Below are positions 25,545 through 51,186 of a stretch of DNA of 64,000 nt, piece after piece (the first letter of the stretch is position 1; the number at the start of each line of letters is the position of its first letter). A model generated the notes under the pieces. That model saw only the letters and a program-made list of their open reading frames with translations, ran no database searches and had not been told where the DNA came from. A program made the position numbers and the translations under genes. The stretch lies in NCBI RefSeq assembly GCF_056712565.1, contig NZ_CM160072.1. One strand, written 5' to 3'.

Positions 25545-25628
25545 TATGAGGTTTCCTTTCTGTTTATAAACGAAAACGCCAGCCCTGTTCAGGCTGGCGT
25601 CAGGAGAATGGAGTCTGGTGAGTGAGAT

Positions 25629-26425: not shown

Positions 26426-26513
26426 ACTGAAGATTTTCCTGATATGCAGAGATGAAAAATGGAAAAGTGGCGTGGTGAAAGCACCAGGCCGAGCAGAAGG
26501 TTATTCTGGAGAG

Positions 26514-26882: not shown

Positions 26883-26961
26883 GATAAAATCCTCACAGAA
26901 AATTGGTTAAGAATGGTCCGGTGGTGGCGATAATTCTGCTCTTCTGAATGCCCTTCCAGAC

Positions 26962-27183: not shown

Positions 27184-27269
27184 GAGAATAGTCCTCCTGA
27201 ATGTGAAAGTAAGAAACAGCTGAGAAAGAGAAACTGAAGTGATATGAAGGTGATTGTGACGGTGACGGG

Positions 27270-27746: not shown

Positions 27747-27760
27747 TGTTCCGGCCCCTT

Positions 27761-28240: not shown

Positions 28241-28505
28241 GAGTGAAATCCTTACAATGTGTATAAATGAGAGGAAATAAAGGCCGGGGGCTGACAACAT
28301 CACGTTCATCACTGACCGTGAGACCCGGCAATATCAGGGATGAATGATATTCGGCTGAAATTCCGGACAGCCGTACGCGTAACCGTTCCGGTCACAGACG
28401 GATGGCCAGAAGATGCCATTGCCTGTACTCAGTCTGCACAGACTGAGTTCTCCGGGGCGTCGGGTGATTCTGGTGCCTGAATCACGCCTTCAGGGACAGA
28501 TTGCA

Positions 28506-29324
28506 TCAGCGCAGGCTCTCCAGTAGCGTTTCTGCCATCACCCACAATGCGCGATTGAGCTTAATGCCGGTGTCGATGCTGTGAATGGCACGGGTGTGGA
28601 TACGTTTTCCTCTGGCACTGCGACCGGAAATTCCGCCTTTTAGCATATTCTCCTGGATGGTCTGATAAGTACTCCACAGGTCCTTACCGTAATCCTCCCG
28701 GCGTCGTGGCGTCAGAATGTCGGCGGTGGTGACGGGCTGATGTTCGTCACCATAACGGTAAGTCAGTGCCGCCTGTGCCAGCGCCTGGCGTGTCGGTGGC
28801 GGCAGGACCAGCGACTGCATGGCATCACGCTTCTCCTCTATCCGGTCAAACACGCCCACCACCTCGTAAGCCCCTTCAATAACTTTCTCCACCACATTTC
28901 CCCGGTGTGGAACACGCAATTCTCCCAGAGACTGACCGCAGACCAGTCCATTGGTACAAATGGCACGAAAATATCCGGGTAACATCTGGTAGCTGGATGA
29001 ACCGTCATGGGAGTTGAGCAGAATAATTTCAGGCACATGCTGACCGGTTATCTGTCCGGCCCGCCGCAGACGCAGCATATGTTTGGTATATTCCCGGCGG
29101 CTCTGGTCGCGCACACGGGTCTGGCAGGCGAAGAACGGCTGAAAGCCTTCCCGCTGCAGATTTTCCAGGACGGTGATGGTGGGAATGTACGCATACCGTT
29201 CACTGCGGGAGGTGTGCCGGTCTTCTCCAAAAATACTCGGGACGTGGTACATCAGTTCTTCGCGTGTCAGTGGGCGCTCCCGACGGATCTGATTTACATG
29301 ACCAAAACGACTGGCTAATTGCAT
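28506..29324 (-). CDS. DUF932-family protein (YafZ/YfjQ-like)
   Basis: 272-aa ORF in the conserved CP4-type gene order. Confidence 0.55.
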   Translation of the reverse strand: MQLASRFGHVNQIRRERPLTREELMYHVPSIFGEDRHTSRSERYAYIPTITVLENLQREGFQPFFACQTRVRDQSRREYTKHMLRLRRAGQITGQHVPEIILLNSHDGSSSYQMLPGYFRAICTNGLVCGQSLGELRVPHRGNVVEKVIEGAYEVVGVFDRIEEKRDAMQSLVLPPPTRQALAQAALTYRYGDEHQPVTTADILTPRRREDYGKDLWSTYQTIQENMLKGGISGRSARGKRIHTRAIHSIDTGIKLNRALWVMAETLLESLR

Positions 29325-29413
29325 ACTTTGCTCCTTATGAATGAATTAGCGGTATAAACGAAAAGGCCGCGTCTCCCGGAGAAGACGCGGCCTGATGGAT
29401 GAAATGAAGACGT

Positions 29414-29647
29414 TTATTGCCTGAGAATTCCCTCACTGGCGAGATACGAATTTAGCTGTTTTCCGGCATCAGGTTCAAAATTCCAGCACCGCCAGCGTAG
29501 CTGCCCTTCGGCATTGCGGATAACCAGCCGGAAATGCGTTCCCTGGTCATCTTCAATAAGCACATTGCGGTAAGCTGTTGTGATGACAACCGCCTGTTCG
29601 CGTGAGAAAGGGCCTTCGGGCAATAAAACAGGGCGACAGTCCAACAT
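29414..29647 (-). CDS. Small hypothetical protein of the CP4-like module
   Basis: 77-aa ORF in operon orientation; family not recognised. Confidence 0.35.
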
Positions 29648-29652
29648 ACCGG

Positions 29653-30330
29653 CTATTTTCCGATAAATTCAACGCTGGCGCCGGTGGCATTACCGTCAGC
29701 ACCAACCGTGACGGTCACTTTGTCGTACGCACGGTCTTCAGGATTGAATACTTCAAACTCAACCTTATTGCCTTTTACTTCGTAAGAGCCAAAATCAGCG
29801 GTTTCTGTTGTTTCCTCGTCGTATTTCCGGGCGTATGCCTGTCGGGCAGCCTGCAGTACGGAGTCTTTATTAATAGTGGTCGTCTGTTTCGGGGAAAAAA
29901 CGGCAAGTGATGTGACAAATTTCGGACAGACCTTCAGCATATCACCGCGGGTGAATTCCATTCGTACACCAAATGCCTGTAAAACGGACACATCACGCTC
30001 TGCTATGGAGTGAACGGCTTTTTTGACCATTTCCGACGCCTGTTCGGCTTCCACCTCAACAGCCCTGAATCCCGTCTGCTGATTACACATTTGTGATGTG
30101 GGGATCAGGTTACCGTTAATACTGATACGGCTGCCCAGGAGCGTCTGTACGCCATTCGGGCATCCCTGCATCAGGCCGGTAATACCAATCGTGCCATTTT
30201 TCAGCATTACCAGCGCCTGACCATCTTCCGTCATGGTCTGGCACCAGCCGTTTTTGACAGCCCAGTTACCGGCGGAGGCGGAGAAGGATGCAACAGTGAA
30301 AAGCAGGGGAAAAAGAGTTCTGGTATTCAT
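29653..30330 (-). CDS. Putative secreted protein or lipoprotein (YfjS/YafY-like position)
   Basis: ORF track 261 aa; likely start at [22 protein letters not shown], a signal-peptide-like N-terminus. Confidence 0.4.
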
Positions 30331-30480
30331 GACTGACCTCTGAAATGAACGTACGGTGTTATTGATAATGATGGAAGGTATGCAGTGACTGTTCAGGAAA
30401 TGACGTAATAGCCATATATTTAGTTTTCTGTTCAACATATTGTCTCCATACCTGTCGGGACGGCTTTGGCAGGCCGGCGA

Positions 30481-31161
30481 TCACAGGTTAAAGGTGTTGA
30501 TAAGTTTATGGATGAAAGAGAAATGTGGCAGGGCGGAGATAAAACGCTCTTCAGCGACCAGATTGTGGATGTGGCCTCTCCGTTCAAACCGTTCTGATGT
30601 CAGGCTGACTGATTTGATATCTGCCAGGGGAAAGACCTGCAGTTTTCCCTTCTGTAACGCGATCAGATACCAGCTTCCGCTGTAATAAATGAGCCGGCAG
30701 GGCTCCAGTGACGTATACCATCGCTCAGTCATCAGCGAGATGTGGATACACTGTTTTATTGCCAGGATGAGTTGCGAGAAACACTCGGGGAACGTTGCAG
30801 TGATATCCGGCGCCGGTAGCCAGATAAGGCAGGGAGAGGGCTCCTGGTTGTCGGTAAGACAGGTTATCAGTCGTCCGTTCCGGAGCGGAAGTATCCGTGC
30901 GATCCCGGTATTCTGTATAAAAGAAAGCATTTCAGGGATCGCACACGGGCTGCTCTGTCGTCTGAGGCTGTACCTGCCATTTCTGTACTCTAAATCCAGG
31001 TGAACCAGACGCTGATGAAAATCGCGCTGTAAAGTACGTTCTGTAACGCCAAATTCATCTGACAGTGTCTTTAGTGACAGAGATTCTCCGGCCATCAGTC
31101 GGCTGATAATGAGTGATAAGCGAACCGCCAGACGATCATGCCGGGAACGATCATCAGACAT
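30481..31161 (-). CDS. WYL-domain transcriptional regulator (YfjR-like)
   Basis: 226-aa ORF, N-terminal HTH (LKTLSDEFGVTERTLQRDF) and C-terminal WYL-like region. Confidence 0.65.
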   Translation of the reverse strand: MSDDRSRHDRLAVRLSLIISRLMAGESLSLKTLSDEFGVTERTLQRDFHQRLVHLDLEYRNGRYSLRRQSSPCAIPEMLSFIQNTGIARILPLRNGRLITCLTDNQEPSPCLIWLPAPDITATFPECFSQLILAIKQCIHISLMTERWYTSLEPCRLIYYSGSWYLIALQKGKLQVFPLADIKSVSLTSERFERRGHIHNLVAEERFISALPHFSFIHKLINTFNL

Positions 31162-31363
31162 AGATGTGTACTCCGTAAGAAAACATCTTTTATTTCATGA
31201 TGTTATTATGCCTCATGGTGTTGAAAGGATGTGTCGTATCTGAATAATCAGGAATAAAATGCAGCAGAAAAAATATTCCTTTAATTATCTGATTTTTAAT
31301 GATGATTTCATAAAAAGAAGAATACTCGTTAATCCAGCGACACATCCTGTCGGCGTGAGTGTG

Positions 31364-32248
31364 TCAGAACAGACGATCCCACAGTGTTTCCAGCAGGCGG
31401 ATAATGCGGTCCCGGGCTTTACGCAGAAGCTGTAACATCCAGACCGGAAAAGTGAACCGGGCAACGGCGTCGTCAAAACTTTTCCCGATGGCGTCACCAA
31501 AAGTCTGTTGTGCGTGTTTCTGGGCCTGTTCAGAGCGGTTTTCCCCCCGGATATGTGAATAAACCGCACTGGTTGCCTGCGGTGGCAGGGCGTGGATCAT
31601 CAGCGACACAAACGCCGGAAGATTCCAGCCGACAGGCGCAGCAACGGGGAGTACCGGAAATGATGACGGGAACAGGGTTGCCACCCTGGCTGTAACAGTT
31701 GCCAGTGAGAGTTCCTGGTGACGGGATGGGCATTTTTCTGTGGCATTCCATTCTTCAGCAGGAAACACGCGATCGGCATGGCTGAGAACAAACAGAAAAC
31801 GCGAGGGATCTGCACCTTCATTCAGTAAAAACTGATGCATGGCAATATCGGCAGCATACGCACGTTCATCAGCCCGCAGGATCCAGATAATCAGATCCAG
31901 TTCCGGCAGTAACTGACGGTAAATCTCCCGGTATTCCTGATCATGCTGCGGTGTCTCACCAATGCCGGGCAGATCGACCAGCGTCATTCTGCGTTCACCA
32001 ATCTGCAGGGTGAGGCGATGAGCCTGGCGGGTGCAGCCGTTCAGGGGATGCGTGGCGCAGATACGGGACTGAAAAATGGCATTACACAGACTGCTTTTGC
32101 CGGTGCCGGATTTACCCATAATGCCAATCACGGGCTCGTAATGAATAACACCGTGGAGATGTTCAAGGATTTTCTGGCGAATTTCTTCAGGAAGAAACGT
32201 CAGATATGATTTCACTTGCGCGGAGAGGGAAGAATTGCTGAATGGCAT
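31364..32248 (-). CDS. YeeP/YfjP/YkfA-family GTPase
   Basis: 294-aa ORF with P-loop GIMGKSGTGKSSLCNAIF and DLPG switch motif. Confidence 0.8.
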   Translation of the reverse strand: MPFSNSSLSAQVKSYLTFLPEEIRQKILEHLHGVIHYEPVIGIMGKSGTGKSSLCNAIFQSRICATHPLNGCTRQAHRLTLQIGERRMTLVDLPGIGETPQHDQEYREIYRQLLPELDLIIWILRADERAYAADIAMHQFLLNEGADPSRFLFVLSHADRVFPAEEWNATEKCPSRHQELSLATVTARVATLFPSSFPVLPVAAPVGWNLPAFVSLMIHALPPQATSAVYSHIRGENRSEQAQKHAQQTFGDAIGKSFDDAVARFTFPVWMLQLLRKARDRIIRLLETLWDRLF

Positions 32249-32348
32249 ACCGGTATCCTGTTGATTTCACTGAACCGGATCACACTAATCCGGTTTATCA
32301 TTCAGGTAATATGGGTGTGAAAATTTTTCCATTGACGGGAAGAAGAGT

Positions 32349-33572
32349 ATGGCTAAAAACAAAGGTATCTGTCGGAATAAAAAATGCAGTAATCCTGTTT
32401 CAGAATTTGATGAGGCAAATGCCTTAAGGTTATGCGATGATCATTATAAGCTATGGAAGCGAAATAAAGAGAATCGTCGGGTCAGGAATATTTGTCGTAT
32501 AATTAGTAGATATGACAAAAGTCTGGACTGGGAGATATTTTATAGAGTAAGAGATGCTGCAAAAAATAAAACGGGAAAGAGAATTATTGAGGACGCAAAA
32601 ATATTACACCAATGGCGTGCTTCAAAGCAAGTAAGAAAAAGTTTTCACAAGGGTGTGCTTCGGTCACGGGAATGGCTTAATACACAGGAGTTACTGAGCA
32701 GAAAACATATATCTGTTACAGGTGAACTATTTAAATTTTACATAAAAGATATTATCAGATTATATTGCTATAAGTTTCTCTACAGCAGAGAATATCTTAA
32801 TGAAAACGCATACAAAAAACGATATCAGAGAGATATTCACCCCAGAAAAGTTAATGTTCCGATACTGCAACTTGAAGTTGCATGGATAAATAATAATTGC
32901 CGCTCAAGTGATTCAAGCACTGATATTATTATCCTTCCGAGGATGATAAGAAGAATGGTTGTATTTAATTATACGAAGATAAATAAACAATTAGAGAAAG
33001 TGTTGGGGGGGATAGCACGAAAACAAACCTCAGAAAGGAATAAAGGCGGTCTCTATACCAGAATAAAAAAAGAAAGTGACTTTCTTTCTATGGATAGATT
33101 TATGGTGGAAATAGAAAATATCATAAGACCTGAAAGGTTTCCTACATCAATTTATCCAGTCTTTTCACATTCATTTATTGAACGAGAGCTTCCGCTACTG
33201 AATCTTGCCCGATCACAGTATAAAAGAGCAATAAGTAAAAGAGTGGCGAATTCAATTTTTTATACTTTGCAAAAAACTAACGTGGCATTATGGCTATATC
33301 TTGAAATGTTTGCTCTGGTGGCATTCATTAAACTGTATACAGGAAAAGGTTTTGAATTCATAAAGAACATGTGTGTATTTATCGATTATGAGAAAGGGAT
33401 AATAAAATCCACACATGAAGAACTGCTGGGTGAAATTAAACGTAACATTCAAGTGAATTTGAAGGTGAATCCTGATAATTTTCCAGAGTTAATAGATATA
33501 TACAATTCATGCTTTAGTGAAAATATATTGTCATATGATATTCAGGATGGTAATTTTAAATGGCGCTCATGA
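32349..33572 (+). CDS. Hypothetical 407-aa basic protein with an N-terminal Cys4-type (zinc-ribbon-like) motif; AT-rich foreign gene, family not recognised
   Basis: Uninterrupted 1224-nt ORF in visibly AT-rich DNA, divergent from the GTPase gene; N-terminus CRNKKCSNPVSEF...LCDDHYKLW; Lys/Arg-rich. Confidence 0.6.
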   Translation: MAKNKGICRNKKCSNPVSEFDEANALRLCDDHYKLWKRNKENRRVRNICRIISRYDKSLDWEIFYRVRDAAKNKTGKRIIEDAKILHQWRASKQVRKSFHKGVLRSREWLNTQELLSRKHISVTGELFKFYIKDIIRLYCYKFLYSREYLNENAYKKRYQRDIHPRKVNVPILQLEVAWINNNCRSSDSSTDIIILPRMIRRMVVFNYTKINKQLEKVLGGIARKQTSERNKGGLYTRIKKESDFLSMDRFMVEIENIIRPERFPTSIYPVFSHSFIERELPLLNLARSQYKRAISKRVANSIFYTLQKTNVALWLYLEMFALVAFIKLYTGKGFEFIKNMCVFIDYEKGIIKSTHEELLGEIKRNIQVNLKVNPDNFPELIDIYNSCFSENILSYDIQDGNFKWRS

Positions 33573-35024
33573 TGTGAAAATATTAATTTCACATTACATA
33601 TTAATTATCCACAAAAAACATATAATTAATTTCAATGAGTTACATATAAAAACGTTGATGATTATCCAGCTTAGTATGGTTATGCAATGTGATGCTTAAC
33701 GCTTACAGATAATAACACATTCATATGAGCTATATATCATAATATTCAATAATCATGATATGCTAATCTGATTATGGATAAAAATTACTGAATGACGCCA
33801 TATTATGATTGGCAGTGTTTCCTGTATACGATGACTTATCTCTCCCGCATCATATGGGGGTACGTTTCTTAGGAAAAGTGACGGGGTTACAGAAGCCAAT
33901 TACGATAGTTTGTTGTAGAGTTATCACGAGTTTTTGTTGTTCTGAAGACGGAATCAGAAAAATAATTCCAGAGTAAACATGTCTGTTTTTTGACCAGTAA
34001 AGATCCATGCTGGCCGTGAAAAACTGAAATCAACACTCAGTCTGCATGGATGTCTGAAGATATTGAGAATGTCGGGAATGGTACTATATACGTATTATAC
34101 AGACATATCTTCACTAAGTGTTATACACGCATTTTCATAAACAATTCTACAAGTGTTTTCATTAAGCATTGCTGTACACATTGTTTGATCTGATACACAT
34201 CCAGTTTAGTAAATCTTTACGTTAGCTAAAATCAGTTTAAAGCTGCTACAAAACAATTTTTCTTGTTTAAGTAATCAGGATGATATTCTATTTTTCTGAA
34301 GTTACGTTTAACCTTTTCTTAGTTTTTGTGTTTTTAGTCGTTAACCTGAGACAAGTGTCTTTATGTAAAAACGCAAATCCGGCTGAGATAACCTGGCGTG
34401 ATTTACTGTGTGCTTACGATGATTTTGTTAAATGGTTTTATGGATGATTTTGTAACGATGAGATTGATGAGATGATTAACTGGCCCTGGTGTTTTTTCTC
34501 AGCGCAAGACTCTTTTCAGGAAAAGCGTGATGATTGGTTCTGGTGTTTTGATTCAGATGAGGTTTACGTTATCGATGGTTAACCGTTTTTATGGAGCGTA
34601 GTTAAAAGTAACGTTTTCAGTATAAGAAAATCGATTCTGATGTTGGTGGTTTTTGTTCTTGGGGCGGGGGTGTCTGTAAACAGGTTTTAATCGCGCTGTT
34701 CGGCTCTGTGATTGAGTTGTGTGGTTAAGCTGTAGGTGTGGTGTTGCTGTTGATTTACAGCGCCAGAAAGCGTTCTGATTGCGTTTCTGACGTTTTGTTT
34801 GCGCGTTCTGTTGATCCGTTTCCCTTCAGGCTTTGTAGTTTTTAAAAAACATTTATGCCGTTGTTGTGTGTTTTACTCTGCGTGTAGGTTTATTTTTTCT
34901 TCGTGGGGGATTCATTCTGTTTTAATCAGGAGCCATTGGCGTTGCTCAATGGCGGGATGCCGTAAAGTTTTACCGCAGTGATTAATGATGTGAAGTCAAT
35001 CCAAATCAACGGAGATCTCTCATC

Positions 35025-36678: not shown

Positions 36679-36806
36679 AAGCTCGGTTCAGCATCTTTCC
36701 CTGCATTCGCACAAACTTCATAAATCTCACAAAGGACATTCTGACCATGTTGACCACAACAAGCCACGACAGCGTGTTACTGCGTGCCGACGATCCCCTG
36801 ATCGAC

Positions 36807-36980
36807 ATGAACTACATCACCAGTTTCACCGGTATGACCGATAAATGGTTTTACAAGCTGATCAGTGAAGGTCATTTCCCTAAACCCATCAAACTGGGGC
36901 GCAGCAGCCGCTGGTACAAAAGTGAAGTGGAGCAGTGGATGCAGCAGCGAATTGAGGAATCACGAGGAGCAGCAGCATGA
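36807..36980 (+). CDS. alpA: AlpA-family phage transcriptional regulator (excisionase-like HTH)
   Basis: TDKWFYKLISEGHFPKPIKLGRSSRWYKSEVEQW matches the AlpA signature; ORF track start 36747, internal Met at 36807 preferred. Confidence 0.7.
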   Translation: MNYITSFTGMTDKWFYKLISEGHFPKPIKLGRSSRWYKSEVEQWMQQRIEESRGAAA

Positions 36981-37098
36981 AACGTGTTGCAATACCAGCG
37001 CCGGCATTGCGGAAATCAGCCCTGTCCCCGATGCTGGCGACACTCCCGCTCATCTTTCTGCTGACTCCTCTGGTCTGCCAACTGTTTGTCATCATTTC

Positions 37099-37266
37099 CT
37101 GACTGATTCGTCATTCCCTTCGTCCCGCCAGTCACTGGTGTTTGTATCGTACCGTCCGGTGTTGATGTGCGTTTTCCGTGTGTCTGCACCGGCTTAACAA
37201 AATTCAACAGGGTTTGAAAAGGAACATTTCGTGCAAATAACCGAAGCCTTAATTTCAGAGCCGGGA
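37099..37266. repeat. Copy 1 of a ~150-170 bp repeat (inverted relative to copy 2 at 44502-44651) with a conserved 7-1-7 palindrome
   Basis: Manual alignment to the reverse complement of 44502-44651: blocks ccggctctgaaa, gcttcggttatttgca, tccttttcaaacc, cgccagtNactggcg, gaatgacga shared; roughly 75 percent identity. Confidence 0.6.
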
Positions 37267-37279
37267 GACATCCGGCGTT

Positions 37280-37636
37280 TTGTTCAGCAGGCGCTGGAGT
37301 TCTTTAATCTGCTTCATGGCAGCAGCAAGTTCAGAGGCAGGAACGACCTGTTCTCCTGCGGCCACAGCAGTAAGACTTCCCTCCTGGTATTGCTTGCGCC
37401 AGAGAAATAACTGGCTGGCTGCCACACCGTGTTGCCGGGCAACAAGGGAGACCGTCATTCCCGGTTCAAAGCTCTGCTGAACAATAGCGATCTTTTCCTG
37501 TGTAGTACGCCGTCTGCGTTTCTCCGGTCCTAAGACATCAATCATCTGTTCTCCAATGACTGGTCTAAAAACTAGTATTAAGACTATCACTTAAATAAGT
37601 GATATTGGTTGTCTGGAGATTCTGGGGGCTAGTCTA
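37280..37636 (-). mobile_element. insC: IS2 remnant (left inverted repeat plus 5' part of insC); rest of the element missing
   Basis: Terminal ggttgtctggagattctgggggctagtcta matches the IS2 IRL; minus-strand [56 protein letters not shown]... equals IS2 InsC until homology ends near 37280. Confidence 0.75.
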
Positions 37637-38793
37637 GTTTTAAAGCGCCCCCTGCCGTATCAGAACTGGGGAATGCTACAGGGTTTGACCTGTTCCTCGA
37701 GGATCGTAGCGGAGCTAGCCATGAAAAAATGATCCAGGCCCGAAATCAGCTTCTTGCTGAAGCGGCGAAAAGTCCAGCGTTAAACATGGTTCGTCCTAAC
37801 GGCATGAACGATGAGCCTCAGTTCCAGATTCTGATTGATGACGAGAAAGTTCAGGCGTTTAAACTGAGCATGAGCGACGTCGACAACATAATGTCAGCAG
37901 CCTGGGGTTCGATGTATGTAAATGATTTTAACGATCGTGGACGGGTGAAAAAAGTCTATATTCAGGGCGAACCCGGCTCACGTATATCACCGCAGGATTT
38001 TGATAAATGGTATGTCCGTAACAGTGATGGCGACATGGTTTCCTTTGCCTCTTTTGCAACAGGCAAATGGATTTATGGCTCACCAAAACTGGAGCAATAT
38101 AATGGTATCTCTGCTGTCGAAATCCTGGGGGAACCGGCACCAGGATACAGTTCCGGGGATGCAATGAAAGCAATTGAGGATATTGCGGCAAGACTTCCCG
38201 AAGGTTTCCATATTTCCTGGACAGGTTTGTCTTTTGAGGAACGACTTTCAGGTTCTCAGGCTCCTGCACTATATGCACTTTCACTGTTGATCGTCTTTCT
38301 GTGTCTGGCTGCACTGTATGAAAGCTGGAGCATTCCTTTCTCGGTCATGCTGGTTGTTCCGCTTGGTGTCCTGGGGGCTGTCTGTGCTACTTTGTTGCGC
38401 GGCCTTGGTAACGATGTCTTTTTCCAGGTCGGTTTATTAACAACAATAGGGCTGTCTGCGAAAAATGCCATACTTATCGTGGAGTTTGCTCGTGAATTGC
38501 ATGAGAAAGAAGGACTAAGCATTAAAGAGGCTGCTGTTGAAGCGGCGAGAGTGAGGTTAAGACCGATAATTATGACTTCGCTGGCATTTGTAATGGGGGT
38601 TATCCCACTGGCTGTCTCGACTGGAGCAAGTTCCGGAAGTAAACATGCCATCGGTACTGGTGTGGTTGGAGGGATGATCACTGCTACGATACTGGCAATC
38701 TTTTATATTCCTCTCTTCTATATGTTAATTGCCGGGTTCTTCAGCCGCAGAAATAAGAAATCATCGGATAAGACTGAAGCTGAGCAATCATAA
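37637..38793 (+). pseudogene. RND multidrug efflux pump (AcrB/AcrF-like), C-terminal ~350 residues only; 5' part removed at the IS2 junction
   Basis: [28 protein letters not shown]...[25 protein letters not shown]... aligns with AcrB residues ~690-1049; no N-terminal two thirds. Confidence 0.8.
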
Positions 38794-38892
38794 GCATGAG
38801 TAAATATTCAGGTGCAGTAAACAACATACTGCGCCTGAGTAAATGGCTGTTGGGTTGGTACTAAATGCCCCAGAGATATTTCCTGAAATAAG

Positions 38893-39493
38893 ATGTCAAT
38901 GGAGATTTCAACAGTGGTGCGGCACACAAAATTTGCAGCGGAAGAAACCCGCAAACAAATCCTGGATGTGGCAGAGTTCTGCTTTTGTGAGACGGGCTTT
39001 TCGAAGACGACACTGGAGATGATTGCGGCGCGCGCAGGTTGTACTCGGGGGGCCATATACTGGTATTTCAACGAAAAAAAAGATCTTCTGCGACAAGTCA
39101 TCGAGCGGGTACCACTATCATTATTTGATGAGCTTACAGCCATCAAAAATGGGAGAGTTTTTGAACCGGTTAAAGCGATGTATCGTTGCTTATCACGTAG
39201 CCTGATTAAATTACAATATAATGTACACTTACGGAATGTAATTTATATTGTGTTTTTTTTGTGAAGAATGTCCGGATGATATAAGAATAAATTTCTTACA
39301 AAAAATGGTGGATGTCAATAATTTTGTGAAATTACTATGTTATATTTTCGAAAAAGGTAAGTTATATAGAGAAATATGTTTGGAAATTCGTAGTGAGACT
39401 CTGGCGTTCCTGCTTTTTTCTTTGTTTACGGGGGGGGGCGAAGTTGCATTCTGCAACCTGATAATAAATCCCTTTTCAGAGAGGGTTGCATAG
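38893..39493 (+). pseudogene. TetR-family regulator (AcrR/EnvR-like), apparently frameshifted
   Basis: N-terminal TetR HTH (TTLEMIAARAGCTRGAIYWYFNEKKDLL) in the 38893-39264 ORF; remainder continues in another frame (39248-39493); T8 run at 39253-39260. Confidence 0.55.
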
Positions 39494-39535
39494 TACTGGA
39501 GTTGACCCAATCAACCTTCACAGGCATCGATAAAA

Positions 39536-39881
39536 ATGAACGCTACTATAAAAAACAGCTCTGATATCAATGAGTTTGCTAAATGGATTGATGAAAATCT
39601 TGAGGTAGAACTCTCAATAAATATTGAGGCAAAAAAAGCTGGATATTCAAAATGGTATTTACAGAGATTGTTTAAACATATCATTGGTATTTCTATTGGT
39701 AGGTATATTAATAAATGCAGCAGAAGAACTACGTTCTACTACTGAATCGGTCACGACTATCACTTTTAAATATCAGTTTGATTTTCAGCAGACATTTACA
39801 AGGGCATTTACTCGCCGCTTTGGTATAGCTCCTATTGCATACCGAAAACTCGCTAAGGAAGAAGTGAGATGGAATAGTTAG
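39536..39881 (+). pseudogene. MarA/SoxS-like small AraC-family regulator, split across two frames
   Basis: INEFAKWIDENLEVELSINIEAKKAGYSKWYLQRLFKHIIG in one frame, FDFQQTFTRAFTRRFGIAPIAYRK in the next; together they resemble MarA. Confidence 0.5.
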
Positions 39882-40237
39882 TTATGTAAGCGTTATTTAC
39901 TTAAGCGTGGATATATAAGAATGATATTATCAATATGTTGCTCATGAGTTTTTAATAGCATATAGGCTTGTTAACATAGCCCAGCAATATACTTTGCAGT
40001 GGGAGCAGGTATGCATACAGAACAGTGGGCGAGGACGAGCGTCCCTTTTCGAACAAGGTAGCAAAAGAGGAAGAAGAAAGACAAATACAACTGGGCCTGA
40101 AAGGGTAGTGTTTAAGCCCCCTTTCAGGGGGCCGTGTCAAAGCCGCCCGCTATGCAGATGGTTTTTTACTTTATCTGTTAAGCAAAAAAATGCCGCGATA
40201 AAGAAATTGTTACCGCGGCAGCGTCATAGCAATTTAC

Positions 40238-40783
40238 TTATTTTTTCTTGCCGCTGGAACGAGGACCTTTCTTTGCTGCCTCCTGCGGTACATCAGATTT
40301 TGTAGGTTTAGTGTTTTCTATTGAGGGTTTAACTGGTTGATGCTGCTCCACGGACTTCAGCGTTTCATCAGTGACATCCATACAGGATGCGCTGATTGAC
40401 GTATCAAGGTTAACCACCGGGAATGTCTGTGAAGGCGCGTTTTCAGCCTGCAGTGTCGGTTGTGCAGCAGGCACTTCAGGTTGAGGTTCTGCGACGCCGG
40501 CGGTCACTTTAGAGTGAATAATCTGCTCGATATGCTGCGCGGTGCGGGCGATCACCTTATGGGCATACACCTCGCCAACCCGGCTTGCCGCGCTGATGGC
40601 TGCCGCTACCGCCGCGTTAATTGCGCCCACTTCCCCTTCCAGCTTCACGGTCACCATCCCGCCGCCTTTCGTCAATTCATAGCCTACCAGACTAACGTTA
40701 GCGGATTTCATTGCGGCATCGGCGGCTTCTACCGCCGCAGACATCCCGACGGTTTCGATTAAGCCTAAACTTTTCCCAGACAT
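40238..40783 (-). CDS. BMC-H shell protein (PduA/EutM fold) with ~90-aa Pro/Lys-rich C-terminal extension
   Basis: MSGKSLGLIETVGMSAAVEAADAAMKSANVSLVGYELTKGGGMVTVKLEGEVGAINAAV... then a low-complexity tail; start at internal Met preferred over ORF-track start. Confidence 0.8.
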   Translation of the reverse strand: MSGKSLGLIETVGMSAAVEAADAAMKSANVSLVGYELTKGGGMVTVKLEGEVGAINAAVAAAISAASRVGEVYAHKVIARTAQHIEQIIHSKVTAGVAEPQPEVPAAQPTLQAENAPSQTFPVVNLDTSISASCMDVTDETLKSVEQHQPVKPSIENTKPTKSDVPQEAAKKGPRSSGKKK

Positions 40784-40827
40784 AAATTTCTCCTGTAATA
40801 AATTCAACTGTGCTGCGCGTCGTCGGC

Positions 40828-41979
40828 TTAACGTCCAACGTCTTCGTATAATAGCGCCGCTTTGTCCGTAACTTCCCACGGAAAGCTGTCGCGACCAAAG
40901 TGACCATAGCAGGCTGTTTTACGATAGCGGGGGACCAGCAGATCAAGCGTAGTAATGATGCCGAACACGCTAAGATCGAAATGGCTGTTAACGCCTCTCA
41001 GCAACGCTTCAGATGACACTGTTTGTGTACCGAAGGTGTTAATCCTGACGGAAACAGGGCGGGGCAGGCCGATGGCCCATCCCAACTGGACTTCACAGCG
41101 TGAGGCAAGCCCAGCGGCGACGATGTTTTTCGCCACATAGCGAGCAGCGTAGGCGGCGGAACGATCGACTTTCGACGGATCTTTGCCTGAAAACGCGCCG
41201 CCGCCATGGCAAGCCGCGCCGCCATAGGTATCAACAATAATTTTACGCCCCGTTAGCCCGCAGTCACCCACCGGCCCGCCAATCACAAAACTGCCTGCAG
41301 GGTTCACCAGAAAGCGGGTTTGTGGTGTGAGCCAGTGCGAAGGCATCACAGGTTTAACAATTTCTTCGATGACCGCTTCCCGTAGCGCGTCCAGAGAAAC
41401 GTCAGGGCTGTGTTGGGTAGACACCACAACGGTATCTACTGAATGAACACGATTATCCTGATAGCGCAGGGTAACCTGGCTTTTGGCATCAGGGAGTAAA
41501 AATGGTAACCGTTGGGATTTACGCAACTGCGCCTGGCGCTCCATCAGACGATGGGCGTATACCAGCGTGGCGGGCATCAGTTCCGACGTTTCATCACAGG
41601 CGTAACCGAAGGTGATGCCCTGATCGCCCGCCCCCAGTTCTTCCATCGAGTGGCCGCGAATGCCTTCAGCAATATTGGCGGACTGTTTGCCAAGGATATT
41701 TAATACACAGCAGGTATTGCCATCAAACCCCAATCGCGAATGGTCGTAACCAATCTCTTTTATGGTGTTGCGGACAATCTTCTCAATATCCACGGCGGCA
41801 TGGGTAGATATTTCTCCGGCAACAATAGTGGCACCAGTTTTCACCAAGCATTCACAGGCAACCTTACCCCACGGGTCCTGTAGGAGTATCGCATCCAAAA
41901 TGGCATCAGAAATTTGGTCCGCCATTTTATCGGGATGCCCTTCGGCAACGGATTCGGAGGTAAACAGGTAATCGTTCAA
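40828..41979 (-). CDS. S-adenosylmethionine synthetase paralog (MetK family) within the microcompartment locus
   Basis: 383-aa ORF with MetK signatures [71 protein letters not shown]. Confidence 0.9.
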
Positions 41980-42107
41980 AGCGAGCCCACTTGTTTGGGA
42001 AGTTTATTCCTATCTTAGGATAGGAACCTGACAAGTGGGCGTAAACTATCTTGCGGGCGTGTTGGACTATTTTGCTTTCATTATCGGGCCAATGCAAAAT
42101 CACGCCA

Positions 42108-43163
42108 TCACCGTGTAATTCCCGGGGACACGACTTTTCGATAATCAGAGGGGGTCATGCCAGTATCTTTTTTGAAGATGCGGCAAAAATAGTTTGAATC
42201 CTGGTATGCCAGTTCCAGCGCAATGGTATTTACTTGTAAGTCACTGAACCGCAATAACGATTTGGCGATAGTAATTTTACGCGTGGCAATATAGTTCGAA
42301 AACCCGAACCCGGTAATTTTCTTAAAGGTACGGCTCAAATAGCAGGCACTGACAAACGATTTTGCTGCCACGTCATCGAGCGTCAAGTTTCTGAGAATAT
42401 TTTTCTCAATATGGAATTTCGCTCGTTCGATAAAATCGATATTGCCTGTATAGCCTTTTAATGCGTAATCAAACAGCTCTTCGCTAATGGTCAGCAGGCT
42501 GATCATGATGCGGAAATAGCGGCTTTCCATCATGCCATACTGGTTGATGTCTTTGATCAGCGCGGCGACTTTACGGTTAGTCGGCATTAACTTTTCCCCT
42601 TTGGCGGTCATATACTGGCTAACTATTTCCAGAAAATCGATCACGTCTTTGCGCTTATCCTCTTCTATCATATCCACCGGACAGGCACCGTTGAGCGTGT
42701 CAAAAATAAAGTTGTGCCACTGGGTGTAATCGCAATCGTCTATCATGGCGAACACTTTCTGTTTTAGGGCGCGGGATTTTTCATTTTCTCCTTCGTCGAA
42801 TGCTAGGGTTTTTTTGATGGTGTCGGTCAAGATACATTTTTTCACTGGTTTGAGCAGATAATCATCCACTTTAAGGTTGTACATGCTGCGTACTATATCA
42901 AAGTCATCATTGGCCGTGATTACGATGATTTTAGTATCGCTGTTTTTTTTCTTCAGATATTCAATCACCTGTTTACCGTTCGGCAACGGAATATTAATGT
43001 CCACTAAGATCATATCGATTTGACTCAGTTGGTCAATTAAGTGAATCGCTTTTTTACCGGTTGAGGCTTCATGGATCGCAGCGTTTTCCACACACTGGGA
43101 GATAATCTGCCGCAGGGATTCTAATTCGATGGGCTCATCTTCAACGATAACAATGGTAAACAT
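42108..43163 (-). CDS. Response regulator with CheY-like receiver and C-terminal AraC-type HTH (YesN-like)
   Basis: 351-aa ORF MFTIVIVEDEPIELESL...DMILVDINIPLPNGKQV... and C-terminal AraC HTH. Confidence 0.85.
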   Translation of the reverse strand: MFTIVIVEDEPIELESLRQIISQCVENAAIHEASTGKKAIHLIDQLSQIDMILVDINIPLPNGKQVIEYLKKKNSDTKIIVITANDDFDIVRSMYNLKVDDYLLKPVKKCILTDTIKKTLAFDEGENEKSRALKQKVFAMIDDCDYTQWHNFIFDTLNGACPVDMIEEDKRKDVIDFLEIVSQYMTAKGEKLMPTNRKVAALIKDINQYGMMESRYFRIMISLLTISEELFDYALKGYTGNIDFIERAKFHIEKNILRNLTLDDVAAKSFVSACYLSRTFKKITGFGFSNYIATRKITIAKSLLRFSDLQVNTIALELAYQDSNYFCRIFKKDTGMTPSDYRKVVSPGITR

Positions 43164-43179
43164 ATGTCCTTTTCCTGTA

Positions 43180-44442
43180 TCAGGCTTCCTGCATTGGGAA
43201 CCGAAGTTTAATGGTTGTACCCATCCTGGGTTTGTTAGGGCTCATTATTTCCAAGCCATAGCTCTCGCCAAATAACAACTTCAATCTATTTTTTATGTTG
43301 TTAATGCCAATACTGCCTTTTTGCAATTTTTGGTCGCCTGATAAAATGCGATTAATGGTATCTGGTGCGATGCCGTCGCCATTGTCAGTGACTTCAATAA
43401 TCACGTTCAGGCCATCGTCCGTGGCACGGATCAGCAGATGACTATTGCTATCCCTTGGCTCCACTACGTAGTTAAAGAAGTTTTCCACCAGCGGTTGCAG
43501 GATCAAAAACGGGCAGACTACATCCAGATATTTTTCCGGGATATCGCACAGGTAATCGAAACGGTCTCTCATACGCACTTTTTGGATCGACATATAGTTG
43601 TTGACGTAATTTATTTCATTACGCAGAGTAATCAGGCCGTGACTATTTTTACGTAACAAATAGCGCATCATGTCAGAGAAATCGTGCACCATTGTTTCGG
43701 TACGCTGCGCATCTTCAAGAAAAGCTAACCGGCCAATGGTATTTAATACGTTAAATAAAAAGTGTGGATTTATCTGATAAGAGAGCGCTTTAAATTCAGC
43801 TTCATGTAGTGAGCGTTCTATCTCTACACGTTTTCTTAACTCATTAGCCAGTGCAAGATCCTTTTTACGAAGTTCGCGTTGGATATTATTGGTGTGCGCT
43901 TGTTCGACCAGATAAGACGATACGTGTAGTAACGTCGAGGCAGTAGACTCAAAACGCTCATACGGCATGCGACGTGTATTCTGGTGCAAATTAATTAACC
44001 AAGGATTATCTTTCCAGACGTCATTATTATTCAGAATATAGGAAATGCTCTGTTCTTTCTCTTCTTCGACTTTTACCTGACCGGAAATAAAAGCACCGAG
44101 ATAATGATCGTTAATCATGATTGGGACAGCGAATTCGACAAAACCGCAGTGGCAGCGATAAACCACCGGTTTGCGAGCGTGCATCGCGGCACGGCCACCA
44201 GCGTTGTCGCTTTCATAACAGTGGTGCGCCAGTGTCGGGTTGAGACGCGAACGCATGCAGAAGTCTGAAAAACCGCTGGGCTTAGTGACCGGGATACCAT
44301 TCTCATCCACAACCACGAGCGCGATCATCATTGATTTTGAAAAGTTGTCCTGCAGGGTCTGAAGGCGTTTTACATCCAAAAACTCATTTAATTTGTATTT
44401 ATTCTTCATACTTTCAGCCTGCATTTTTAAAAACATAATCAT
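43180..44442 (-). CDS. Sensor histidine kinase with N-terminal PocR-like small-molecule-binding domain (cytoplasmic, YesM/LytS-type core)
   Basis: 420-aa ORF; Cys/His-rich N-terminal domain ([22 protein letters not shown]...[14 protein letters not shown]), H-box [18 protein letters not shown]-terminal ATPase; no TM segments noted. Confidence 0.8.
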
Positions 44443-44501
44443 ATATTTATAAATAATTTGTCGCGAAAAAATTGAAATGGATCACAGCAACAAAAACAGC
44501 T

Positions 44502-44651
44502 CCGGCTCTGAAAGTAATGCTTCGGTTATTTGCAAGGGATACTCCTTTTCAAACCTTGCTGAACCAGTGCAGATACACAGGGAAACGTATACCAGAACTG
44601 CCACAATACAAACGCCAGTTACTGGCGATACGAATGGAATGACGAGGCAGT
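44502..44651. repeat. Copy 2 of the inverted repeat (see 37099-37266); lies in the upstream region of the PocR kinase operon and abuts the group II intron 3' end
   Basis: Same alignment as copy 1; contains the perfect palindrome cgccagt-t-actggcg. Confidence 0.6.
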
Positions 44652-44713
44652 CTGTCAGAAAGCCCCACATGAACGATCACCACCTACATAGGAGGTGTTT
44701 TAAAATTGATCGA

Positions 44714-46515
44714 GTAGGAGGCGGGATCACTCCCGCCGTCCTCTCACACCACCGTACATGCGGCTCCGCATACGGCGGTTCATGTTAACACTGGAACTGC
44801 CTCTGCTGTTCCAGCAGTGATATCAGACCCTGCCTGCTGAACCACGCATTCTTTATCGCCTGATTCATATGGCTTGACTCTGAGTTCCACCATGGCCCGT
44901 GGTTGTTGTACGCTGAGATCATCGCCCTGTCCTTACTCAGTCCTGCTCTTTGCAGGTTCTTTGCCCGGGTTAGCGGTCTCTTCCACTGCCGCTACAACAA
45001 GCAACGCAGTTTCCGTTTGATCCAGCCATCCAGCTCCTCCAGCACTCCTCTGACCTCCGTCAGCCTGAAGTAGCTTATCCATCCACACAGCACTGGTGTC
45101 AGAGCATTGATTGTCGCTTTCACTGATTTGCTCCGGTTTCCCGTCGTCAGACTGTGGACTTTCTCCTTCAGCCTGTTCACGCTCGTCAGGGCTATCTTCA
45201 GCTTCGCCTGTTTGTGCCATGTCACACTGTACCCGAGGAACTTCCGATCCCACGGGCGCGCCACCGCGCTCTTCTTCTCATTCACCTTCAGTTTGTTCTC
45301 CACGAACGCCCTGATGTTCTTCAGCAGATGGTCGCCCGCTTTCCGGCTGCTTACGTAGATGTTGCAGTCGTCTGCGTAGCGGCAGAAGCTGTGTCCACGA
45401 CGCTCCAGTTCTTTATCCAGTTCATCCAGCAGGATGTTCGACAGTAACGGCGACAGTGGGCCGCCCTGCAGCATGCCCGCCTGCCGTTTCTCCCTTTGCC
45501 CGTCTTTAACCATTTCCGCTTTCAGGTAGCGGCGTATCAGTCACAGCACCCGCCTGTCCTTTATCGTTCTGGCCAGACGCGTCATCAGGAGTCTGTGATC
45601 CACCCGGTCGAAGAACTTCTCCAGATCCATATCCACCACCCACCGTTTGCCACCCCGTATGTAACGCTGTGCCTGTTGCACCGCCTGCTGGATAAGCCTG
45701 TCCACCACCGTCGGGATGCCTGAGGTTCTCACGCCGCCATCCGGCTTCGGGATATCCATCCGGCGTATTGTCCGCGGCTGGTAGTTTCCGTCAATCAATG
45801 CCTGCCTGACGCTGCGCCAGTTCTTCTTCAGCCACGGTTTCAACTCCGCCACGCTGAGGTTATCCACCCCCGCCGTGCCTTTGTTTTCCACCACGCGCTG
45901 ATAAGCCAGCATCAGGTTTTCTCTCGTTATCACCGCTTCCATCGTCAGCGGCACTTCCGCTTTCGTTTGCCCACCCGCCGCCGTGCTGATTTCAGCGCCA
46001 TCATGCAGCCCTGACGGATACTGTCCGTCTCCTCTGCCGCTGGTCGCAGTGGCCTGCGCTTGTGCTTCATTAATCATCATCGGGTTCGGATGTCCTAATC
46101 ACAGTTAATCATGTTCGGCCCTTCATGCTGCCGGTTTTGCAGCACTACTACGGCGTCGGCTGACTTCTGCCGCCCCATCCCGGCGCCTCACGGCGCCGGT
46201 AGCACACTGGCAGGGCGACAGATCTCCCGGGGTAATTCACGCGACTTTCCTGCTTATGCCTGTCGGCTTTACGTCACAGCGTTCCGTGTGAGTATCGGGC
46301 TTTGGTGATTAGTGCCACCTTACCCTGCTGCGCCGCCTTAACCGCTTCCTGTTCGTCAGGCCAGCATTTTGCATCCAGCTTCCTTCAGATTTCACCTCGC
46401 GATGAACACCCTTGCCTTCCGCTAACACTTCCCCTCACCGGGTGTGTGGAGGACTTTCACCTCTTAGTCGTTCTTCTGCCACCACAGTTGAAGAACAGCG
46501 CCAGTCACGGCGCAC
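44714..46515 (-). mobile_element. Group II intron (bacterial class C-like: inserted just downstream of an intrinsic terminator)
   Basis: Minus-strand 5' end GTGCG at 46511-46515, six nt after the terminator U-tract; domain V-like hairpin (GAACCGCCGTATGCGGAGCCGCATGTACGG) and domain VI-like hairpin near 44715-44780; RT ORF inside; 3' boundary approximate. Confidence 0.7.
44992..45942 (-). pseudogene. Intron-encoded reverse transcriptase/maturase interrupted by in-frame stop codons
   Basis: RT motifs (GVDNLSV, QGGPLSPLLSNILLDELD, FCRYADDCNIYV) and X-domain (CGWISYFRL); in-frame TGA at 45541-45543 and TAG at 44992-44994 after which the frame still reads RQWKRPLTRAKNLQ. Confidence 0.7.
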
Positions 46516-46525
46516 ATAACAAAAA

Positions 46526-46548
46526 GCCAGCAGGCAGACACTGCTGGC
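46526..46548 (-). terminator. Rho-independent terminator of the upstream membrane-protein gene; insertion target of the intron
   Basis: gccagcag-gcagaca-ctgctggc hairpin flanked by A5 and T5. Confidence 0.55.
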
Positions 46549-46565
46549 TTTTTGTTATGGCGGGA

Positions 46566-48633: not shown

Positions 48634-51186
48634 TTACGACAGTTGTTGCTCAGTACGGCTGATTATGTCGTCCTGAACTTCTTTCGCTAAAACTACCCAC
48701 TGGGCGCTATAGCCCGCAACGCGTACCACCAGATCCTGATGTTGCTCAGGATTTTTCTGGGCTTCGATCAAAGTGTTGCGGTCGATAACGTTAAATTGAA
48801 CGTGCATCCCTTTCTTATCGAAGTAGTGACGTATCAGGCCGCTGAAGTTGCGCAGACCGTTCTCGCCAGCCAAAGAAGACGGCAGGAATTTCTGATTATA
48901 GAGCGTACCGTTGGAGGCGATAAAGTGATCCAGTTTGGCAACTGAGTTGGCTGCGGCGGTTGGGCCAAGGGTGTCTTTACCCTGACGTGGAGATACGCCA
49001 TCCGCCAACGGCTCTTTCGCCAGACGGCCATCCGGCAGTGCGGCAACGTCTTTACCAAACAGCACGTTCGCAGACACCGGATAGATACCAGCCTGGAACT
49101 GGCCACCGCGCGGGTTGGTATATTTCTCAACTTCCTGGCAGTAGATCAGCGCACATTTACGCGCTACTAAATCCACGTCATCGATGTCGTTACCGAAGCA
49201 CGGTGTGTTTTCCAGAATACGACGGATCTCCTCGTGACGGGACATAGTGCCGGATTGCACCGGTGCTGCACTGCCGGAAGTCAGCTGGCGATAAACTTCG
49301 TTTTTAATCGCTGCCGGATCCAGCGCGCCATGCTGTTCAATGATGCGTTTCACCACATCGTAGATATCCTGCTCGTTGAGCGAGGATTTCGCCGCTGGAG
49401 TGTGCGGGTTCGCACCCACCGGATAACCGAAGTTGGCGTCCAGTGCGCTTTTCAGTTCGCTCAAAGACAGTTTACGATCTTCGAATACCTGTTTCTGGAT
49501 GGCATAGACGGAGTCGCCGGTATCGGCTACGCCGAATGCTTGCGGCCCAGTAAAGTTGTAAATCGCCCCGCCTTCCTGGAGAGATTTACCACGGCCGATA
49601 CAGTCGTCGACCAGTGCTGATAGGAACGGCAGCGGGCAGCGTTCGCCGTGGGCAATATCCACGCTGTTACAGGCTTCAACCAGTTGATGAACGAAGTGCG
49701 CCATCTGTTTCTGGAACGCGGTGTAGAAGTCCTCCATGCTGGTGAACTGAGTCAGTTCGCCAGTCACTGGGCCTAGCTGTTTATTGCCAACGCGACCGTT
49801 GTTCAGGGTGATTTCCAGCACTTTTGCAACGTTAAAGAACGCGGCGTCATGCCAGCCCTCGGTGCGATGCGGTGCCTGCGGCTCTACGCAGCCGATGATA
49901 CAGTAATCACGCGCATCACGCAGCGAAATGCCACGGTTCTGCAGCGCCGGGATGATTACTTCATCGTTGTACATTGCCGGAACGCCCAGGCCCATACGCA
50001 CCAGCTCGCAAGCGCGATACAGAAACTCATCCGGAGTACCCTGCCATACGCGGATTGAGAAGGATGGCTGCGGCAGACGCACATGGGCAGTCGCTTCCAT
50101 ACACATGTAGCTCAGATCGTTAGTTGCGTCGCGACCGTCTTCTGTCTGGCCGCCACAGCACAGGTTCTGGAACACTGCGTAACCGGCAAACGCCTGGGCA
50201 GAGACTTCGTCACGCGTTTTGTTAATGTCGTTAAGCTTGATCCAGCAGCAATCCACCAGTTCCTGCGCGAATTCACGCGAGATAGATTTGTCCGACTCCA
50301 GATACGGGTACATATACTGGTCGAAACGCCCCGGGGAGATAGAATGACCGCTGGATTCAATCTGTAACATGCTCTGAATAAACCAGAATGTCTGGCATGC
50401 TTCCCAGAATGTGGTAGCACCGTATTCCGGCACGCGAGTACAGTTTTGAGCAATCTGCTCCAGTTCGCGTTTACGGGTCGGATTGCTCTCCTGCTGCGCC
50501 AGACGGGATGCTTCTTCAGCGTAACGATGGGCGAAACGGATCGCTGCGTTATAACTGATCAGCACCGCATTATAGAACTGTTCTTTCTTTATATATCCTG
50601 GTTCAGTGCGATCTAATGATTCCAAGGCACGGCTAACTTCATTAATGATACCACGGAAACCAATTTTCAGCACTTTACCGTAGTCAACACTGACATGACC
50701 GACGCCCCCGAAGAAGTAGTTACCAACAGTGAATACACCGCTCGCCATACTCTCTTTAGTGCCTTCTGACATGTAAGATGCCGCCAGAGCACTGGTAGTT
50801 TTACCCGGCCAGTATTTAAATGCTTCATGAAGCTCCTGAGCAGTCTTTTTCGGGATAACAAACGGGTCGGCAATACGGTGTTCCATAGTCTCAAACTCTT
50901 TTTCCACCCAGTCGTAGGAGAACTCAGGGCAGATTTCAGTTGAGCGAGGATTAATAGTTACCGCTCCAACGATTAATTCGTCTGGGCGAATTGTTACCGG
51001 TAATTGGTTAAAGATTTTTTCCACCACTTTAGCACGACGCATAATCGCGGGCAGTTGTTCTGTTTCTTTATATGCTTCGGTTGCTAACACCGCGCGTTCT
51101 GATTCCACATACGGCTTCGCCGTCAGGATCATATTTCTCAGTCTTACAACACGGTCTGTCGGATTAGAAAAGCCTTTCTCTAACAT
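48634..51186 (-). CDS. Glycyl radical enzyme of the dehydratase/eliminase clade (probably B12-independent 1,2-propanediol dehydratase; choline TMA-lyase or another diol/amino-alcohol lyase not excluded)
   Basis: 850-aa ORF with catalytic GCVEP motif (DYCIIGCVEPQ) and C-terminal glycyl radical motif VVRVAGYSAQW; substrate assignment is inference from locus context. Confidence 0.85.
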   Translation of the reverse strand: MLEKGFSNPTDRVVRLRNMILTAKPYVESERAVLATEAYKETEQLPAIMRRAKVVEKIFNQLPVTIRPDELIVGAVTINPRSTEICPEFSYDWVEKEFETMEHRIADPFVIPKKTAQELHEAFKYWPGKTTSALAASYMSEGTKESMASGVFTVGNYFFGGVGHVSVDYGKVLKIGFRGIINEVSRALESLDRTEPGYIKKEQFYNAVLISYNAAIRFAHRYAEEASRLAQQESNPTRKRELEQIAQNCTRVPEYGATTFWEACQTFWFIQSMLQIESSGHSISPGRFDQYMYPYLESDKSISREFAQELVDCCWIKLNDINKTRDEVSAQAFAGYAVFQNLCCGGQTEDGRDATNDLSYMCMEATAHVRLPQPSFSIRVWQGTPDEFLYRACELVRMGLGVPAMYNDEVIIPALQNRGISLRDARDYCIIGCVEPQAPHRTEGWHDAAFFNVAKVLEITLNNGRVGNKQLGPVTGELTQFTSMEDFYTAFQKQMAHFVHQLVEACNSVDIAHGERCPLPFLSALVDDCIGRGKSLQEGGAIYNFTGPQAFGVADTGDSVYAIQKQVFEDRKLSLSELKSALDANFGYPVGANPHTPAAKSSLNEQDIYDVVKRIIEQHGALDPAAIKNEVYRQLTSGSAAPVQSGTMSRHEEIRRILENTPCFGNDIDDVDLVARKCALIYCQEVEKYTNPRGGQFQAGIYPVSANVLFGKDVAALPDGRLAKEPLADGVSPRQGKDTLGPTAAANSVAKLDHFIASNGTLYNQKFLPSSLAGENGLRNFSGLIRHYFDKKGMHVQFNVIDRNTLIEAQKNPEQHQDLVVRVAGYSAQWVVLAKEVQDDIISRTEQQLS

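Follow-up and report, generated by a model that had tools for sequence, protein, structure and literature searches.

What do two facing copies of the same sequence signify in a bacterial genomic island? In the 64,000-nt stretch of Escherichia coli DNA analysed here (contig NZ_CM160072.1 of RefSeq assembly GCF_056712565.1, hereafter the window), two similar sequences of about 150 nt, copy 1 and copy 2, form an inverted repeat around a 7.3-kb segment that carries the regulatory genes grpP and grpQ, with mobile-element debris near each arm. An earlier note, made from the sequence alone, had proposed a shared operator, a recombination site or a structured RNA. Our analysis points elsewhere. The repeat arms appear to be truncated relics of a common E. 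coli genomic-island gene start and the pair a scar of island assembly, not a switch, an operator or a structured RNA, a reading to which we assign a probability of about 0.85.

The similarity of the two intervals was genuine. Positions 37101-37265 (copy 1, plus strand) aligned to the reverse complement of 44652-44502 (copy 2) with 123 of 150 ungapped columns identical (82%) and indels of 4 and 10 nt. The alignment score was 123, against a maximum of 25 in shuffled sequences (n = 500), and blastn inside the window matched the copies at E = 4e-25. A repeat finder returned two collinear inverted blocks, 37203-37264/44502-44563 (85%) and 37101-37150/44603-44652 (84%), and the longest exact match between the copies was 16 nt. 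The palindrome reported by the earlier note for both copies was perfect in copy 2 (CGCCAGTaACTGGCG, 44627-44613) and imperfect in copy 1 (CGCCAGTcACTGGTG, 37126-37140).

The pair was not a unique two-copy element. A 176-nt blastn query matched 7,485 places. They were spread over 3,681 of 5,426 complete E. coli genomes, at a median of two and up to seven per genome. The annotated coding sequence (CDS) of intact members begins inside the match, ~35 nt before its 3' end, and both copies aligned with intact members (L002, L003 and L008-L043) through the leader, the Shine-Dalgarno sequence, the start codon and the first codons. The repeat unit is a leader of ~130 nt plus the first codons of a gene of the UCP030791 family (PF27752). 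Start codons are GTG at 37231 in copy 1 and TTG at 44535 (minus strand) in copy 2, and the N-terminus (V/L)QITEAL(I/L)SEP is common to both copies and to UCP030791-family proteins. The claim that neither copy holds a consistent open reading frame (ORF) was wrong, because this gene start occupies the last ~35 nt of both. Intact proteins of the family are 166-182 aa long, and no ORF of that length exists in either copy. With no more than 22 codons left in copy 1 and 11-12 in copy 2, both are relics and not functional genes. The parts of the two copies are as follows.

37101-37230, plus strand: non-coding leader of a UCP030791-family gene in copy 1, from alignment to the family.
37231-37298, plus strand: gene start of copy 1, GTG and ~22 codons, annotated in RefSeq as a truncated pseudogene.
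44536-44652, minus strand: non-coding leader of copy 2, from alignment, with a 5' flank of the type seen in loci L044 and L048.
44502-44535, minus strand: gene start of copy 2, TTG and 11-12 codons, fused to grp DNA (grp homology of relatives ends at 44496).

The protein family comprised 333 clusters at 90% identity, nearly all from Escherichia and all labelled PF27752. The identification as UCP030791 came solely from this precomputed label, and an intact 182-aa protein had no match in the Pfam-A copy used, NCBIfam or PHROGs. Some family members bear "inovirus Gp2/YagK" names, which remained unconfirmed, as BLASTP showed no similarity between the 182-aa protein and the neighbouring YagK_YfjJ_C protein. 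A literature search returned nothing about UCP030791 or the promoter of grpP. When species-representative genomes were scanned for the Shine-Dalgarno/start block, a single match came up, an O157-type copy carried by a contig that bears the label of a Collinsella metagenome-assembled genome; a viral contig scan with exact blocks also gave one match. Outside sequence derived from E. coli, the exact blocks scanned are therefore rare.

Native gene order was read from more than 30 genomic loci fetched by exact-protein look-up. The upstream part of the order is a YagK_YfjJ_C/REP-like gene, a hypothetical gene of ~190 aa, a Phage_AlpA gene (77 aa), a small ORF, the leader and the UCP030791 gene. The latter is often followed by a 207-aa gene, a 77-aa gene and a DUF4222 gene and then by variable cargo, which may also be placed directly after, or within, the UCP030791 gene itself. 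Homology in native loci was unbroken from alpA through the small ORF and the leader into the UCP030791 CDS. The presumed element is thus one section of a longer conserved backbone. Scars of this kind are common: in other strains, too, orphan leader fragments lay beside cargo of other types. The UCP030791 gene was the boundary between backbone and cargo of CP4-type islands in loci L008-L013, L022, L030, L038, L040 and L045-L048, and the cargo right after it included the Kiwa defence genes KwaA/KwaB, K88-type fimbriae, a DeoR-rbsK module, a ProQ-like gene with H-NS, and a type VI secretion system. An 11-nt motif, ATTCCTCACTG, was present in three tandem copies directly 5' of the leader in L026 (~2930-2965) and in one or two copies in related loci.

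Because native-context homology runs on past both sides of the repeat, a terminal repeat of an insertion sequence (IS) or transposon is excluded. The same data refuted a larger version of that idea, in which the pair would be the terminal inverted repeats of a 7.5-kb composite mobile element. Inverted orientation and the debris beside each copy (an IS2 remnant and an intron) would fit such an element, but the homology continues through genes on both sides, the copies point inward as gene 5' ends and not as element ends, there is no transposase between the arms and there are no target-site duplications. The 7,485 family places are, moreover, single copies in fixed gene context, and we consider the probability of a composite element negligible. 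Near the arms there is only the IS2 end fragment and the intron.

Copy 1 sits in the native position, behind alpA and a conserved small ORF, between the following neighbours.

36747-36980, plus strand: alpA-like gene, 77 aa, Phage_AlpA/excisionase-type helix-turn-helix, from PHROG excisionase/regulator matches and the precomputed PF05930 label on homologues in L008, L019, L030 and L038.
36977-37102, plus strand: conserved 41-aa small ORF, from the ORF list and RefSeq annotation, kept in alpA-type backbones.
37286-37636, minus strand: IS2 left-end remnant, with IS2 homology from 37286 to the IS2 end at 37636.
60947-61442, plus strand: 5'-truncated 207-aa backbone gene, from annotation and from loci L040 and L019, which from their position 3723 match the window from 60947 on.

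The ORF of this hydrophobic 41-aa product shares the sequence ATGA with the alpA stop and closes with a TGA at the 5' edge of the leader homology of copy 1. Copy 1 had been placed between alpA and the IS2 remnant, which is correct except that this ORF intervenes after alpA. Its homology had been ended at 37266; the match to intact genes continues to 37298, and the shared 3' end of the pair is the truncation point of copy 2. The junction of gene and IS2 falls inside a 13-nt stretch (AGCAGGCGCTGGA, 37286-37298) that is identical at 12 of 13 positions in IS2 and the UCP030791 gene, which suggests a microhomology-mediated deletion. The 207-aa gene directly follows UCP030791 in intact islands, and 60947-61442 is therefore the other edge of the backbone of copy 1. 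All of the DNA between, 37299-60946, is cargo: remnants of IS2 and of an RND transporter, a TetR gene, the genes from grpS to grpP, then copy 2, the intron and the genes from grpO to grpA.

Copy 2 derives from a different lineage. Its 5' flank (GACAGACTGCCTCGTC) is the variant of L044 and L048, where zinc-ribbon genes and not alpA precede the leader, while copy 1 is of the alpA type (as in L019). The earlier judgement that a recent duplication is unlikely is upheld by these flanks, and descent from different backbone lineages explains the 18% divergence. Copy 2 has lost its upstream partner, has kept the L044/L048-type flank and has the cargo gene grpP directly downstream. RefSeq has no annotation for it. 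The features around it are listed here.

40238-44496, minus strand: grpP-grpQ-grpR-grpS block, inverted compared with other Enterobacterales, with copy 2 at the grpP end, from comparison of grp loci.
44653-44708, minus strand: 56-nt spacer that separates copy 2 from the 3' end of the intron, with no match among the other sequences fetched.
44709-46515, minus strand: group II intron, from Rfam (RF02001, RF01998, RF00029), sequence and annotation.
46521-46553, minus strand: terminator hairpin after grpO with A-run and T-run flanks (bidirectional type), with a homologous hairpin in relatives, where it separates the convergent grpS and grpO.

The earlier note had copy 2 abutting the intron, but 56 nt of unrelated sequence lie between them. 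We tried the spacer as a missing 3' tail of grpS and rejected this, as grpS is complete with an indel in its tail. The intron starts with GTGCG, 5 nt past the T-run of the grpO terminator, a class-C-like target. The reverse transcriptase/maturase gene of the intron is broken up into two ORFs (45541-46080 and 44992-45513), and the intron is for that reason probably immobile. The grp locus was carried by 536 genomes (649 had any match to the query used); in all 536 loci copy 2 and the intron end were present at at least 99% identity and the 3' junction of the intron was fixed. Annotated at 43180-44442 on the minus strand, grpP encodes 420 aa, and nearly all homologues have 409 aa; the real start is probably 11 codons further downstream.

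Could the pair still invert the segment it brackets, as the earlier note suspected? We searched for the predicted inversion junction with a chimeric query (alpA, small ORF, leader, grpP), a match needing at least 80% coverage, and none of the 5,426 complete E. coli genomes had it. No site-specific recombinase is annotated in 36-47 kb, and the sole integrase remnant lies beside cadC, ~12 kb away. With no such junction in these genomes and a longest exact match of 16 nt, an active recombination site is not supported. The suspicion nevertheless has a historical echo. GrpP homologues in Buttiauxella, Pectobacterium, Vibrio and a metagenomic lineage (GrpP 89% identical) have grpP at the outer edge of the locus, and where the arrangement can be seen, grpPQRS points at grpO, with a shared bidirectional terminator between the two. 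Upstream of grpP, nucleotide homology to these relatives reaches no further than 44496, 5 nt short of the end of copy 2, and on the grpO side it starts at 46521, at the terminator, exactly where the intron begins. grpS is complete in the window. The two breakpoints and the convergent order of the relatives indicate that E. coli carries 40238-44496 and the attached copy 2 in the opposite orientation to the other genera. This inversion is a record of past rearrangement, not an active switch.

Two histories fit this map. In the first, the two inverted leaders recombined with each other, flipped the 7.3-kb segment, turned grpPQRS from convergent to co-directional with grpA-O and left chimeric leaders behind. 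The inversion of grpPQRS relative to four other genera or lineages is what this would produce, the leader sequences of the family are visibly mosaic, and by reasoning alone, undoing the flip gives alpA, small ORF, leader, 12 codons and grpP reading towards grpO, a typical backbone-cargo junction with the convergent orientation of the ancestor. We nonetheless hold it to be unlikely. It needs an earlier insertion of a 3.3-kb block with a second leader between grpS and the grpO terminator; at 82% identity, with an exact match of 16 nt, the copies are a poor substrate for RecA-dependent recombination; there is no site-specific recombinase gene adjacent; and the other orientation is absent from all genomes searched. 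In the second history, two backbone fragments accumulated in tandem and an illegitimate inversion came afterwards, which gives the same map without copy 1.

By either route, the assembly of a composite island beside cadC would have left the arms face to face. Copy 1 is the in-place left edge of a backbone whose gene was probably cut after ~22 codons by an IS2-associated deletion at the 13-nt microhomology, and whose right edge picks up again at 60947. Copy 2 is a fragment of a different backbone variant, cut after 11-12 codons and joined to the DNA upstream of grpP. The block of copy 2 and grpPQRS is now flipped with respect to the ancestral convergent order, in which grpPQRS faced grpO, and it is this inversion that would make the two leaders face each other. 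The pair as such would have no function, and hairpin 1 (described below) with its T-rich tract may at most be a weak terminator for upstream transcription. The order of these events and the absence of function we infer; the homology and family membership, the native and the inverted gene order, the truncation points, the fixation in all grp loci and the lack of an inversion polymorphism were observed.

A shared operator was the next possibility, with the palindrome CGCCAGT-N-ACTGGCG as the binding site of the AraC-type GrpQ or another regulator of the locus at both ends of the segment. The palindromic 12-mer GCCAGTNACTGG had four strand-matches at three sites in the window against 0.02 expected, and one palindrome lies ~170 nt upstream of grpP. 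However, common descent accounts for both leader sites, the leader occurs in 3,681 genomes and the grp locus in only 536, leaving the same leader in ~3,000 genomes without the locus, and most family members have not kept the palindrome. The palindrome also lies outside the grp DNA common to other genera, as homology ends at 44496, and AraC-type regulators usually bind direct or degenerate repeats, not a 7-1-7 palindrome. An operator is on this evidence very improbable. The 12-mer GCCAGTCACTGG, identical to the core of the copy 1 palindrome, was also found inside grpM (49759-49770), probably by chance.

The remaining proposal was a structured RNA. Each leader contains two candidate hairpins, all predicted.

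37126-37140, plus strand: hairpin 1 of copy 1 (the palindrome of the earlier note), 6-bp stem and 3-nt loop followed by TTTGTAT, from the terminator scan, predicted at -7.0 kcal/mol.
44613-44627, minus strand: hairpin 1 of copy 2, a perfect palindrome followed by TTTGTAT, predicted at -8.6 kcal/mol.
37154-37193, plus strand: hairpin 2 of copy 1, a GU-rich imperfect stem-loop, CCGGUG...CACCGG.
44565-44601, minus strand: hairpin 2 of copy 2, weaker, -11.3 kcal/mol.

RNAalifold passed over the palindrome and proposed the GU-rich hairpin 2. Among 14 family variants hairpin 1 was stable in three; in five others it was weak and in six absent, all of these with intact genes. No Rfam family other than the intron reached the gathering threshold, with chance-level matches only at E<=1, and single-sequence folding gave z-scores of -0.4 and -1.9 for the two leaders. 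The structure test was mildly positive with 14 sequences and faded with 38. These 38 distinct copies were gathered through a coding-region anchor so as not to bias the leader, and among them 86.6% of cells were paired against 85.9% in shuffles (68/500) and pairs with double changes numbered 6 against 5.5 (255/500). With no Rfam match, these z-scores and null covariation on the 38 distinct copies, a structured RNA is not supported. The leader was also less conserved than the genes flanking it: in alpA-type members it was 51-82% identical and rich in indels, while alpA was 93% and the first 70 nt of the gene 92% identical, and identity of flanking coding DNA was overall 82-93%.

Hairpins 1 and 2 might act as a transcription attenuation or antitermination module, in which the AlpA-like protein or translation of the small ORF controls read-through into UCP030791 and the cargo, and copy 2 still insulates or tunes grpPQRS. 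The terminator scan found hairpin 1 with TTTGTAT terminator-like in both copies, on the strand reading towards the gene. A scan for sigma-70 promoters found none in either copy, which makes read-through from alpA plausible; hairpin 2 is widespread, and AlpA of Pseudomonas is a known antiterminator. Such a module is still quite unlikely. Its first hairpin is missing from six of the 14 variants and weak in five more with the genes intact, its second is destroyed in the L047/L082/L070 subgroup, where the genes are again intact, and has no U-tract after it, the covariation is not significant, and nothing else in the module is as poorly conserved as the leader.

Several observations count against treating the arms as mere relics. 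Hairpin 2 was predicted in 13 of the 14 variants and survives apex deletions and insertions. The covariation score taken alone, which is inflated by relatedness of the copies, beat nearly all shuffles (matched or exceeded in 2/500 with 14 sequences and 3/500 with 38). A cis-acting role of the leader in its native context is possible. GrpP/GrpQ is a characterised virulence-linked two-component system in strain CFT073 (PMC11724981), and copy 2 lies directly upstream of it and is perfectly conserved there; that paper held nothing bearing on the upstream fragment, and the conservation at grp loci may reflect only the youth of the island. Finally, the scar reading does not account for where the second leader and the 56-nt spacer came from. 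On balance we think it improbable that hairpin 2, joined by hairpin 1 in some lineages, is a cis RNA gating read-through from alpA, with copy 2 co-opted for grpPQ, or that the leaders mediated the grpPQRS inversion.

Elsewhere in the window, the left 25 kb is core genome (adiA, dcuS, fumB, cadCBA), with the integrase remnant beside cadC, and the window holds no tRNA gene. A module of CbtA, YeeU, antirestriction and GTPase genes (~24983-34500) is on the strand opposite to the alpA module, and this opposition suggests a further rearrangement. The window was colinear with strains ATCC 11775 and HS13-1, and not with M217 left of 35871.

We regard the outcome as a clean negative, in which a striking 150-nt inverted repeat beside mobile debris resolves into two decayed, routine gene starts, and similar repeats in E. 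coli islands should be compared with the UCP030791 leader family first. In a very common type of island, the UCP030791 gene is where backbone gives way to cargo, and the grp microcompartment locus is among that cargo. Compared with other genera, E. coli has grpPQRS inverted within the grp locus and a fixed degenerate group II intron after grpO, which may bear on the transcription of GrpP/GrpQ (PMC11724981).

Four known systems offer comparisons. Invertible switches such as fimS and those of the Hin/Gin type likewise have two inverted repeats that bracket a several-kb segment with regulatory genes, but they use short identical recombinase sites, whereas the repeats here are 150 nt long and 82% identical, with no invertase gene adjacent and the alternative orientation in 0 of 5,426 genomes. 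Intrinsic terminators resemble hairpin 1 in its short GC-rich stem followed by TTTGTAT, just after the upstream operon and oriented with transcription; unlike them, hairpin 1 is weak (-7 to -8.6 kcal/mol), its U-tract is interrupted, it is not conserved in the family and it is predicted only. Group IIC introns home just past terminator hairpins, and the intron here likewise lies 5 nt after the T-run of the grpO terminator and has a group II match in Rfam; it differs in that its reverse transcriptase ORF is split, its relation to copy 2 is one of neighbourhood only, and its class is assigned by insertion site alone. A fourth likeness is to CP4-type islands (P4-integrase-associated) and cryptic prophages of E. 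coli such as CP4-57 and CP4-6. They share the YagK_YfjJ_C gene, the alpA-like gene, the leader and UCP030791; their far-end module with a GTPase and the YeeU/CbtA toxin-antitoxin pair has its counterpart in a cbtA/yeeU/JAB-domain/antirestriction/GTPase module of the island here, and the leader is multi-copy per genome (median 2, up to 7) and mosaic. In the window, unlike in these islands, both copies are fragments, and copy 2 has been displaced into the cargo and inverted.

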